Shown here piece by piece: positions 29,660-44,128 of a DNA stretch of 64,000 nucleotides. Source of the DNA: an uncultured Gammaproteobacteria bacterium (lineage in GTDB: Bacteria > Pseudomonadota > Gammaproteobacteria > JAADHQ01); assembly GCA_963807455.1 (NCBI GenBank), contig CAWECS010000015.1, positions 53,424 to 117,423 of the forward strand, read 5' to 3'. A program made the translations under genes and the position numbers. Under the pieces are notes generated by a model. It searched no databases. It was not told the origin of the DNA and worked only from the letters and a program-made list of their open reading frames with translations. How positions within the stretch are numbered: the first letter of the stretch is position 1; every line of letters begins with the position of its first letter.

Positions 29660-29741
29660 ACATAACGTTGCAATTAACTGGCGTATTTACAAGGAGCGCA
29701 GCGACAGAATAATGCGTCCATGTTAAATTATCTTGTTTGAT
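29660..29741 (-). repeat. attC-like integron recombination site (82 bp)
   Basis: ACATAAC-GTTGCAATTAACTGGCG ... GGAGCGCAGCG ... GCGTCC ... TTAAATTATCTT-GTTTGAT. It has the same block structure as the sites at 44047 and 47127. Coordinates +/-1. Confidence 0.7.
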
Positions 29742-30034
29742 TCATTGATTACTCAAATCGTTTATTTCTTTTTCAAGTTCAGCGACCCCTGGCCACTCAA
29801 TAGCCAGCCTGCTTTAAATAACAATAAAATCATACAATTATTTGTAATTTATACATAAAAAACAAATACATGTCGATAAATTCGTCTTTTGCGGCTAGTC
29901 CGGGTCGTGCGCGATAACCACGGTTTGTTGTGAAAAGCGCTTAGCTTGCTGATTTTTATTCAGATTCCAGCTTATGTTGTTAGCCGGTGTGCCGAAACCC
30001 TGTTGTATATAAAGACGCAACTGAGAGCATTGGC

Positions 30035-31432
30035 ATGTATTACGACTTCTTTGGCCTGAATCAGCCTCCCTTCCGGATCACTCCGGATACCCAGCTGTTC
30101 TATTCCGGGGCTGACCGCGGGGATATTCTGCAGGCGCTGATCTACGCCATTCAGAATGGTGAAGCCATTACCAAGGTAGTGGGCGAGGTAGGTACGGGTA
30201 AAACCATGCTCTGTCGCATGCTGGAGCACAAACTCCCCGAACACATCGAAGTGGTGTACCTGCCCAACCCGAATATCCCCAGGGAAAATATTCTACATGC
30301 CCTTGCCTTTGAGGTCGGTCTCCCGGAAGCCATAGGCCAGGGGGTAAGTCGGCTGGAGCTTACCAAAGCGTTTGAAGCTTACCTGCTGCAAAAGCATGCC
30401 GATCACCAGCAAGTGGTGGTGTTTGTGGAAGAGGCACAGAGTATGCCGCTGGAGACACTGGAGGAGATTCGTCTGCTCAGTAACCTGGAGACCCAGCAGC
30501 ACAAACTGTTGCAGGTGGTGTTATTCGGGCAACCGGAGCTGGATCAGAATCTTGCTGCTCCCCATGTGCGTCAGATCAAGGAGCGAATCACCAACAGCCT
30601 CTATCTGCCGCCGCTAAAGGTCGCTGATATCCCCGATTACCTGATGTTCCGCATGCACCTCGCCGGATATAACGGCGCCGAGCTGTTCACCGGTGGTGCC
30701 GCCAGGCTTATCGCACGTGGCTCGCGTGGTCTGTTGCGCCGTATCAATATCCTTGCAGACAAAGCGCTGCTGGCCGCCTATGCGCAAAATGCACACTTGG
30801 TGACCCGTAGACATGTGGCGATTGCCATTCAGGATAGTGAATTTGGCCGCCTGTCGCACTGGTATCGGCCATCCTGGGTGGCCAGTTTGCTGGTGGGCAT
30901 GGTCCTGGGTGCGGCAGGATTATCTGTGGCCAGCCTGGGGACACAGTCAATAGCGCAACTGCCGGCGACGGTTTCCGGCAAACAGTCCGCACCGCGATCC
31001 CTCACACCAGTGGTCCAGGTTGACGTGGCCCATGATGAACCGATAGCAGCGCACTCCAAATCGGGTGATAGCACCGGGTCGCTGGTGAAAAGCCGTATAG
31101 AACAGTCACATACATGGCTGGCGAAGCAGGATCCGCAGCGCTTCAGTATTCAGGTTTTGCTCGCCCGTGCCGATGTCACAGAGGGATTGGAACGCTTTTT
31201 TTCCCAAAAAGACGTTCGTAATGAGATAGATAGGCTACATGTTGTGCAATCCACGGTGAAAGACAAGCCCATGCTGATTGTTTTTTATGGAGATTATGCC
31301 ACCTATGACGAAGCCAACCGTGCCCTGCGAGCACTCCCACAGGGGCTGTCGCGCTACAAGCCTTATCTGCGTCGCCTGCGGGGTTTCATGGCCGAGGCGG
31401 GCCTAAACAGTGTTGAGATAACAAAATCATGA
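30035..31432 (+). CDS. ExeA/GspA/MshM-like AAA+ ATPase with TM and a C-terminal SPOR-like periplasmic domain
   Basis: Start at MYYDFFGLNQPPF (typical ExeA/MshM N-terminus). Walker A GEVGTGKT and Walker B VVVFVEEAQ. TM WVASLLVGMVLGAAGLSVASL. C-terminal RFSIQVLLA...LIVFYGDYATYDEANRAL. Confidence 0.8.
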   Translation: MYYDFFGLNQPPFRITPDTQLFYSGADRGDILQALIYAIQNGEAITKVVGEVGTGKTMLCRMLEHKLPEHIEVVYLPNPNIPRENILHALAFEVGLPEAIGQGVSRLELTKAFEAYLLQKHADHQQVVVFVEEAQSMPLETLEEIRLLSNLETQQHKLLQVVLFGQPELDQNLAAPHVRQIKERITNSLYLPPLKVADIPDYLMFRMHLAGYNGAELFTGGAARLIARGSRGLLRRINILADKALLAAYAQNAHLVTRRHVAIAIQDSEFGRLSHWYRPSWVASLLVGMVLGAAGLSVASLGTQSIAQLPATVSGKQSAPRSLTPVVQVDVAHDEPIAAHSKSGDSTGSLVKSRIEQSHTWLAKQDPQRFSIQVLLARADVTEGLERFFSQKDVRNEIDRLHVVQSTVKDKPMLIVFYGDYATYDEANRALRALPQGLSRYKPYLRRLRGFMAEAGLNSVEITKS

Positions 31433-43055: not shown

Positions 43056-43799
43056 ATGAATCAGGTTGATTTACAAACAAATCACGACAGTCGTTGCAGA
43101 GAGGTTCGTATAACGGACATTCCTCTGGAAGTGGTGGTGCGCAAGGCACGACCATTCAATCTGGGTAAATTCCATTTGTGTACCTTTATCGATATCAATA
43201 TGGGTGGTATCGGTATTTATAGCGACCAGCTTGCACTGCGTGTGCTGGACAAGGTAGATGTGCAGGTGCATCACCAGCACAGGAATTATTTTGTCAGGGG
43301 AATAGTAGGATACCGCCAGCAGGTCAATGGCGGCGTTCAATACGGGATTATTTTTGTAGAAGTGCCGGGTGAACTGGATCTGCTGATCAGAAAGGCCATC
43401 GACAATGAGCAGAGCGTAGATAACAATATTCCTTTGCATACAGACGCAAATACCGGTGCGACCCTGGTGCCAGGCGGGCAAAGAAGGGTAGACACACGCA
43501 GAACGACTCCACTGGTATCGATAAAGGTACGCAAGCCGGGTGCCTTATCATCAACCCAATATTATGAAGCCAGTATGGTAGATATCAGCAGGCAGGGTAT
43601 CGGCTTTGTCTCGGACTCCTTTCAGTGTGAACTGATGAATGCAGTGGAGCTGGTGCTTGGATATAAGGGGCATTCCCATGTTGTCAGCGGGATTGTATGC
43701 TTCAACGGTAAAACGGCGGACGGATATCGTTATGGCGTGGAGTTCGGGCAGCTTGAACCTGGATTGCTGAGCTTGCTGCAGCCAAAACAGGGAGCGTGA
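43056..43799 (+). CDS. Tandem PilZ-domain protein
   Basis: The second domain carries canonical RxxxR (RRVDTRR) and DxSxxG (DISRQG) motifs. The first domain is degenerate (DINMGG, no clean RxxxR). Confidence 0.7.
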   Translation: MNQVDLQTNHDSRCREVRITDIPLEVVVRKARPFNLGKFHLCTFIDINMGGIGIYSDQLALRVLDKVDVQVHHQHRNYFVRGIVGYRQQVNGGVQYGIIFVEVPGELDLLIRKAIDNEQSVDNNIPLHTDANTGATLVPGGQRRVDTRRTTPLVSIKVRKPGALSSTQYYEASMVDISRQGIGFVSDSFQCELMNAVELVLGYKGHSHVVSGIVCFNGKTADGYRYGVEFGQLEPGLLSLLQPKQGA

Positions 43800-44046
43800 G
43801 CCGGCGCAGGCTATCTTTGTACAAATATTTTACTATTCTACTATTCAGGCGCTTATGACAATCCGTTGTAAGCACTTGCTAGAAATTTTATATTTAAACT
43901 CAAATCCAACCACCCGCTATCAGAACACCTGATTCATTACTTATTTCAATTTTTTCGGTGCTATTAATGATATGTATATGATTATTATCATAACGATATT
44001 TTCTCTGGCCTTATCTCTATGTCATCAACTTTAATTTTCATTGTAT

Positions 44047-44128
44047 TGCTAACGTCGCAATTCAGCGGTGACAAAAAGTGGAGCGCAGCGTAGCTTTTTG
44101 GCATCCGACTGAAATTGCCTTGTTAGTC
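44047..44128 (-). repeat. attC-like integron recombination site (82 bp)
   Basis: TGCTAAC-GTCGCAATTCAGCGGTGACAAAAAG ... GGAGCGCAGCG ... CTTTTTGGCATCCG ... AAATTGCCTT-GTTAGTC. It lies 17 bp downstream of the SHOCT gene stop. Confidence 0.75.

Follow-up and report, generated by a model that had tools for sequence, protein, structure and literature searches.

Gene Content and Composition of the Interval

We analyzed a 64-kb stretch of contig CAWECS010000015.1 from an uncultured Gammaproteobacteria bacterium (the window, with positions counted from its first letter), in which a predicted type IV pilus operon of the mannose-sensitive hemagglutinin (MSHA) type lies between two attC recombination sites of an integron cassette array. 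Both parts are of known kinds, i.e., an attC array with no integrase in the window and an MSHA-type operon; it is their combination that is unusual. The features of the interval are as follows.

29660-29741, minus strand: attC site, the last detectable one of the array; R'' box ATCAAAC (29735-29741), R' box GTTATGT (29660-29666); a weak folder
29742-29933, minus strand: left stub, AT-rich, with no match in the operon relatives; interpreted as what remains (3' end) of a lost cassette
29934-43856, plus strand: MSHA-type type IV pilus operon with conserved leader (13.9 kb, 53% GC), the sole part matching relatives
29987-31432, plus strand: ExeA/MshM-like AAA ATPase; Pfam AAA_22 (4e-26), database homologs named ExeA or MshM
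31429-33237, plus strand: secretin MshL; TIGR02519 pilus_MshL (270.9 bits vs. a cut-off of 250.2) and Pfam Secretin
33135-34718, plus strand: TPR protein in the MshN position; Pfam TPR families
34618-36417, plus strand: MshE-type assembly ATPase with an N-terminal domain binding cyclic di-GMP (c-di-GMP); T2SSE (2e-127), MshEN (1e-14)
36427-37632, plus strand: platform protein of the GspF/PilC/MshG family; Pfam T2SSF (3e-50)
37613-39238, plus strand: 534/541-aa protein specific to this operon type; no Pfam or NCBIfam match
39327-41147, plus strand: three small proteins (211, ~156-202, and 241 aa) with no family match; order kept in relatives
41209-42870, plus strand: two prepilin-type proteins (253 and 224 aa); Pfam N_methyl (2e-9 and 1e-7), TIGR02532
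43056-43799, plus strand: protein with two PilZ stretches, the final operon gene; Pfam PilZ (6e-14)
43857-44046, minus strand: right stub, AT-rich, with no match in the operon relatives; interpreted as what remains (5' end) of a truncated cassette
44047-44128, minus strand: attC site of the SHOCT cassette; R'' box GACTAAC, R' box GTTAGCA (44047-44053)

Twelve plus-strand open reading frames (ORFs) fill the 14,305 bp between the two sites, in antisense orientation to the array; an earlier note on this DNA, made from the sequence alone, had likewise made out 11 pilus genes and a PilZ gene on this strand. Four of the 12 ORFs have no family match, and the rest are pilus-related. Judged by its gene content, the block is an MSHA-type type IV pilus operon. 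The assembly ATPase additionally matches the c-di-GMP motif model NF053729 (58.6 bits vs. a cut-off of 38). The database start of the ExeA/MshM-like gene is probably at about 30035, the database entry for this protein having 465 aa. For the 534-aa protein, 76 homologs were found, mostly in uncultured Gammaproteobacteria; three of them are 74–76% identical, and the rest at most 43%. The genes for the 241-aa (40422-41147) and 253-aa (41209-41970) proteins are tandem paralogs with 71–80% DNA identity in blocks and a spacing of 772–799 bp, and the repeat families D2, D3, D7, and D19 fall at this region; within the pair, only the 253-aa member has a recognizable prepilin N-methylation motif.

Like MSHA systems such as msh of V. 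cholerae, the locus combines an MshL secretin, an MshEN-containing ATPase, an ExeA/MshM-like ATPase, a TPR protein, a GspF-type platform, and prepilins, with neither a peptidase nor a retraction ATPase. It differs from them in that the order begins with the MshM-like gene and ends with the two-domain PilZ gene, and in the presence of the 534-aa protein and the three small proteins without family match. Homologs come mostly from uncultured Gammaproteobacteria. The V. cholerae order, given here as background rather than for a gene-by-gene comparison, is mshH-I-J-K-L-M-N-E-G-F-B-A-C-D-O-P-Q. The earlier note had called the filament operon complete. A whole pilus operon does lie between the sites, but no prepilin peptidase family was matched among the 12 ORFs; this peptidase is usually encoded outside MSHA loci. 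Searches of the block for an integrase, a transposase, or a tRNA-like feature were negative as well.

The block has a GC content of 53.4%, with values of 0.52–0.65 at third codon positions (GC3), compared with 35–46% GC in the flanking cassettes and 44–51% in core genes, and its tetranucleotide profile is nearly uncorrelated with those of the cassette regions (r 0.00–0.15). The impression of a GC-richer block, uncomputed in the earlier note, is thus borne out by the computed composition.

The attC Sites and Their Family

Rfam holds no attC family, and two family-specific covariance models were built in place of the IntegronFinder attC model: R1 from four sites of the window, and R2 from 118 metagenomic sites only. 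The family sequence pattern matches the window at four positions, all on the minus strand (29663-29737, 44050-44124, 47130-47183, and 48201-48270), and has no matches in 100 shuffles. R1 gives its four source sites 70–97 bits, with 86.5 bits for 29660-29741. R2 assigns 81.5 bits to 44047-44128, 66.7 to 47127-47187, 63.8 to 48198-48274, and 62.9 (E 2e-14) to 29660-29741, and, with weaker scores, also detects 48707-48796 (E 8e-5) and 44445-44503 (E 1.5e-4). All six R2 sites across the window are on the minus strand. At E ≤ 5, R2 finds no match in 29742-44046 or in 25000-29659. Hence, 29660-29741 comes directly after 44047-44128, 14,305 bp away, as the earlier note had stated, and both are genuine attC sites of 82 bp on the minus strand sharing the internal blocks that it had quoted.

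Both sites end in core boxes of inverted orientation, R'' (..AAC) and R' (GTT..), whose AAC and GTT triplets are invariant throughout the family (115 of 115 sites). The canonical attC hairpin is adopted by three of the four sites: the AAC and GTT boxes pair with each other, a short spacer (3+3 bases) stays open, and the long stem is imperfect, with single-base bulges located in the 5' arm (minus strand). For site 44047, the hairpin has z-scores of -3.3 to -3.8 and a pfold of 0.2–0.25. At site 29660, only 16 of the 19 model pairs are possible, and pfold is about 5e-5, compared with 0.02–0.54 for the other three sites, and its unconstrained fold is no better than those of shuffles. Covariation among 115 distinct sites supports the structure: 93.8% of the predicted pairs form, compared with 21–43% when the partners are slid, and compensatory changes were observed at 13 pairs overall and at 12 of the 14 pairs of the L helix. 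A generic scan for AAC...GTT pairs ranked by folding energy was swamped by GC-rich coding DNA and proved uninformative.

The family pattern matched at least 120 metagenomic contigs, where the sites form dense co-oriented arrays, e.g., of nine (L165), seven (L162), and at least 14 (L135) sites. Two of the arrays (L162 and L121) adjoin divergently oriented integron integrases (TIGR02249, 420.6 and 332.5 bits vs. a cut-off of 265). Site 44047 is 94–96% identical to sites of unrelated metagenomic arrays such as L135 (96%) and L152, and the nearest outside site to 29660 (L175) is 88% identical to it. The two sites bounding the operon are 63% identical to each other, within the range of 55–72% for other family pairs in the window, and the special relationship of "sister" sites proposed earlier was rejected. 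Among 137 metagenomic sites, 23 likewise have the central motif that the two share, and a length of 82 bp is common; the motif GGAGCGCAGCG taken alone is not significant.

The minus strand is the "top" strand of the sites, and the array reads from right to left, because the bulges lie in the 5' arm and each minus-strand ORF on the right side ends just before a site. This agrees with the orientation given in the earlier note, as does the SHOCT ORF (44146-44316, minus strand) found next to site 44047. The co-oriented sites stand 0–18 nt beyond the end of a minus-strand ORF on the right side, six sites in all, with 29660 standing alone at the left.

Such an arrangement could be taken for a giant cassette, one of the two possibilities that the earlier note had raised. 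Such a cassette, 14.4 kb long, would begin at the TTAGCA that follows the G of R' in 44047-44053, would end with the R' G of 29660-29666, and could be excised and reinserted by the integron integrase IntI. Two co-oriented genuine attC sites with no site between them are what this reading needs, and, formally, whatever lies between two functional attC sites in direct orientation can be excised. We nevertheless consider it highly unlikely. The left site has a pfold of only about 5e-5, and excision has been shown experimentally to drop with length when attC folds poorly (PMC5371416); the largest known cassettes are of about 2 kb (PMC4889954). In metagenomic arrays of the same family, the median site spacing is 971 bp and the largest 5,448 bp (52 pairs), compared with 14,305 bp and 12 antisense ORFs here. 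No intI or intI remnant was found in the 64-kb window (the searches included tblastn with two integron integrases). If IntI were supplied from elsewhere in the genome, recombination of 44047 with 29660 could release a 14.4-kb circle with the pilus machine and one attC, an outcome to which we assign a very low probability. Were it to occur, such a super-cassette would mean that integrons could traffic multi-protein envelope systems, and the size limit of cassettes would be greatly raised.

Non-Cognate Ends and the Stubs Flanking the Operon

IntI crossover falls between the G and the TT of R', and the six bases after the G belong to the next cassette. Hence, the first six bases of a cassette (TTRRRY) should complement its own R''. 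We compared each upstream R' with the reverse complement of the downstream R''. Matches at all seven positions were observed for 29 of 45 metagenomic cassettes shorter than 2 kb, and for 5.8% of random pairings; scores of four or less were obtained for two of the 45 real cassettes and for 31% of random pairs. Metagenomic site pairs more than 2 kb apart behave as random pairs, probably since a site between them was missed. In the window, four cassettes score 7/7 and the SHOCT cassette 5/7, whereas the pilus block scores 4/7 (GTTAGCA vs. the expected GTTTGAT), which amounts to about seven-fold support for unrelated ends and speaks against the giant cassette. The identity of R' to the exact complement of the cassette's own R'' provides, for this attC family, a simple check that distinguishes intact cassettes from chimeric intervals.

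Between each attC site and the operon lies an AT-rich stub of about 190 bp. On the minus strand, the left stub contains an open frame ending in ...LAIEWPGVAELEKEINDLSNQ (...AELEKEINDLSNQ) with its stop abutting the R'' of 29660, and in the right stub an ATG 6 nt past R' opens MKIKVDDIEIRPEKISL, 17 codons before stops. The same placement of starts and stops is seen in cassette ORFs elsewhere in this array. By this layout, the stubs look like the 5' end (right) and the 3' end (left) of cassettes. The simplest reading is that they derive from two different cassettes, and therefore at least one attC site with its surroundings was lost on arrival of the operon. An island entering at a cassette junction had been suggested. 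It did not enter at the G/TT junction itself; on either flank, about 190 bp of cassette-like sequence separates the operon from that point. The 7-bp sequence GCGCTTA, present near both limits, was considered as a target-site duplication and rejected; it is situated inside operon DNA conserved with relatives and is probably a chance occurrence.

Relatives of the Operon and the Limits of Similarity

Relatives were reached through the 534-aa protein and then through the first and last operon genes, yielding metagenomic contigs L083-L088. The three closest relatives of the 534-aa protein are all on short metagenomic contigs. The encoded proteins are 74–89% identical, and the operons are located in ordinary chromosomal contexts. 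In JGI 3300045962, the order upstream is DUF502, aspS, NUDIX, and the operon (L087), and the PilZ gene is followed by a 217-aa gene, yebC, ruvC, ruvA, ruvB, and a 4HBT-family thioesterase gene in the ybgC position (L083, L084), and then by MotA_ExbB- and ExbD-family genes in the tolQ/tolR position. The aspS-nudB-yebC-ruvC region is a conserved core neighborhood in Gammaproteobacteria. In SRR31704081, an ABC ATPase gene and an aminotransferase gene precede the operon (L088), and different genes follow PilZ (L085). Homologs of the PilZ protein, 55–89% identical, close the operon in L083-L086 as they do in the window. No attC of the window's family is present in the relative loci L083-L088.

This is again at odds with a giant cassette, whose relatives would not be expected to lack attC and to occupy core-gene contexts, and whose genes would not be expected to run antisense to the array. 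The comparison with relatives proposed in the earlier note gave a divided answer: the cluster is present without such repeats, but between different neighbors, and so the relatives offer no empty site.

DNA similarity to L083-L088 (blastn and alignments) starts at 29930–29948 and stops at 43783–43856. In L086, which is 86% identical, the final 306 bp have no match in the window. Judged by these alignments, the relatives share with the window no more than the bare operon (about 29934-43856), including a conserved leader of about 100 bp 5' of the first gene: 29934-30035 corresponds to L087 3156-3260 and L088 4445-4560, with the common sequence TTCAGCTTATGTTGT...TGCCGAAA(C/T)CCTGTGTATAT. This leader, which travels with the operon, is a candidate promoter or regulatory element; promoter and terminator scans at both ends of the block gave results at chance level. 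In L086, a sequence that the window lacks, AAGACCTG(A/C)CCCCCGTAATTT, is directly repeated (two copies) at 2530-2600, after the PilZ gene.

Alternatively, the operon could be resident chromosomal DNA, with the array ending at 44047 and 29660 being a separate solo attC, derived from a lone cassette at a secondary site or from a rearranged fragment, so that the position between two sites would be incidental. We regard this as unlikely, though it has several points in its favor: no attC is detectable left of 29660, this site is degraded, and some core genes (M3 peptidase, APH) reach 51% GC and GC3 of 0.55–0.57, near the operon values. Integrase-mediated insertion at secondary sites, creating clusters of attC sites lacking an integrase (CALINs), is also on record (PMC4889954). 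On the other hand, 29660 belongs to the same family as the array and is co-oriented with it, both stubs have the cassette layout, and the next ORF after 29660, encoding an SRPBCC protein, is small, low in GC, and on the minus strand, 70 nt away, a spacing like that of cassettes. Since arrays are extended at their attI end, an older distal site that was later separated by an insertion is the simpler history. Finally, the operon occurs in three different contexts among the relatives and therefore moves as a unit.

A further possibility is an assembly chimera, in which the array of one genome would have been joined to the pilus operon of another. In its favor, close operon relatives are known from metagenomes alone. 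The composition, however, breaks in unique sequence, some 190 bp away from the attC repeats; the attC sites are 63% identical, and therefore a repeat-driven misjoin is unlikely; and two independent misjoins framing exactly one intact operon would be needed. To this explanation we attach almost no weight.

Proposed Origin of the Arrangement

Within these 64 kb, the region is an attC cluster without an integrase (CALIN-type), and we consider it probable that a foreign MSHA-type operon replaced an old cassette junction in this decaying array. Of the two possibilities contemplated in the earlier note, an island is hence favored over a giant cassette, given the non-cognate ends, the antisense genes, the relatives without attC, and the weak fold of 29660. 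What the data show is that the sites are attC sites, how far similarity to the relatives extends, the composition, the non-cognate ends, and the location of the relatives outside integrons. The direction and the mechanism of the insertion, as well as the function of the pilus, are what we infer from these observations. The 13.9-kb operon would have been acquired horizontally, as a bare unit with its own upstream leader, and would have taken the place of the DNA that lay from the 5' end of one old cassette to the 3' end of a second one, with the loss of at least one attC site. The route would not have involved the integrase, and illegitimate or homology-assisted recombination seems plausible. 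Before the insertion, the SHOCT cassette is expected to have been followed by an intact cassette starting with ATGAAAATTAAAGTTGATGAC. As the operon reads against the array, it would have to be transcribed from its own promoter, not that of the integron. Its likely product is a c-di-GMP-responsive adhesive pilus formed by the MshE-type ATPase, MshL, the GspF-type platform, the prepilins, and the PilZ protein, which would rely on a prepilin peptidase encoded elsewhere.

Several observations weigh against this history. One normal cassette of the window, SHOCT, is imperfect in the cognate-end comparison too (5/7). In the relatives, too, the GC content of the operon is somewhat above that of its flanks, and the GC contrast is thus partly intrinsic. 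The left limit of similarity was set by relatives that are 77–80% identical, where unconstrained intergenic DNA could diverge anyway. The ORF remnants in the stubs, of 17 and 23 codons, could have arisen by chance, and BLAST of the stubs and the remnants yielded no homologs in any of the fetched loci or elsewhere in the window. No contig with the SHOCT cassette followed by an intact neighbor was found, and no insertion mechanism is visible at the limits of the operon.

The array resembles CALINs, or decaying arrays, as described with IntegronFinder (PMC4889954) in its co-oriented attC sites, small ORFs of low GC content (one or two in each cassette), cognate chain, and lack of intI in the 64-kb window, and in having an IS110-family element within an attC, as in the attC-targeting IS1111-attC group, which this element resembles. 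Unlike in CALINs, one interval is 14.3 kb long, about seven times the largest known cassette, and contains an antisense 12-gene operon. Non-cassette DNA inside an array is also known from array-interrupting islands and insertion sequences (ISs), namely IS1111-attC elements and group IIC-attC introns. These, however, target attC itself and encode their own mobility function, whereas the pilus block is situated about 190 bp from each attC, is free of mobility genes, and apparently took the place of array DNA.

If this reconstruction of an insertion into the array is correct, a cassette array can take up operon-sized non-cassette DNA without an integrase. Under the default 4-kb clustering rule of integron callers, 29660 would become a lone site, and a configuration of this kind would be missed.

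Other Features of the Cassette Array

Two further features complete the array.

44129-49073, minus strand: rest of the cassette array, traced by R1/R2 attC matches, ORFs, and the R'/R'' chain
44988-46644, plus strand: IS110-family element in the attC of the GFA cassette; Pfam DEDD_Tnp_IS110 and Transposase_20, NF033542 (220 bits); ends approximate

The tally of the array is six intact attC sites and one IS-split attC. From right to left, the order is a 79-aa ORF, attC 48707-48796, a 131-aa ORF, attC 48198-48274, GNAT and DUF4760, attC 47127-47187, GFA, the IS-split attC, rhodanese, attC 44445-44503, and SHOCT. The cassette between attC 48198-48274 and 47127-47187 has two ORFs, the overlapping genes for the GNAT acetyltransferase and the DUF4760 protein (47182-48179). 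The transposase gene of the IS110-family element occupies 45129-46172 on the plus strand. The halves of the attC split by this element are still recognizable (R'' ACATAAC at 46656-46662 and R' GTTATGT at 44981-44987), and the cognate chain is kept on both sides.

The array starts with GTTATAC (49067-49073), the exact complement of the R'' of the first cassette. It is preceded by a perfect 20-bp palindrome, TTAGACGAACGTTCGTCTAA (49107-49126), with a near-repeat of its half (49078-49095). The feature at 49065-49126 may represent what is left of an attI site, with repeats for integrase binding, or else an operator. The gene beyond the array start encodes an M3 peptidase (49495-51297, minus strand) and not intI; its relatives in the genome contig scan, from Methylophaga, Thiohalomonadaceae, Methylococcaceae, and others, are all at most 70% identical.

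To the left of 29660, four small low-GC genes (SRPBCC, GGACT, CxxCxxCC, and EEP) are located on the minus strand at 25285-29590, with no detectable attC. They may be old cassettes with decayed sites. A homolog of the GGACT gene (42–48% identity) is situated just past the last detected attC of the metagenomic array L117 (5994-6466). Folding of the intergenic DNA left of 29660 revealed no attC and only one non-canonical hairpin, at 28105-28178 between the CxxCxxCC and GGACT genes; it is near-perfect, with a stem of 17–20 bp and a z-score of about -3.6. This hairpin has AAC/GTT-like ends and no unpaired spacer, and is picked up by neither R1 nor R2. Possible identities are a recombination site, decayed or of a different type, and some other palindromic element.

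The cumulative GC skew climbs across the whole window, which points to the plus strand as the leading strand. If so, the bottom strands of the attC sites (plus strand) would be on the lagging-strand template. This location of the bottom strand has been linked to easier folding and to small arrays (PMC5371416).

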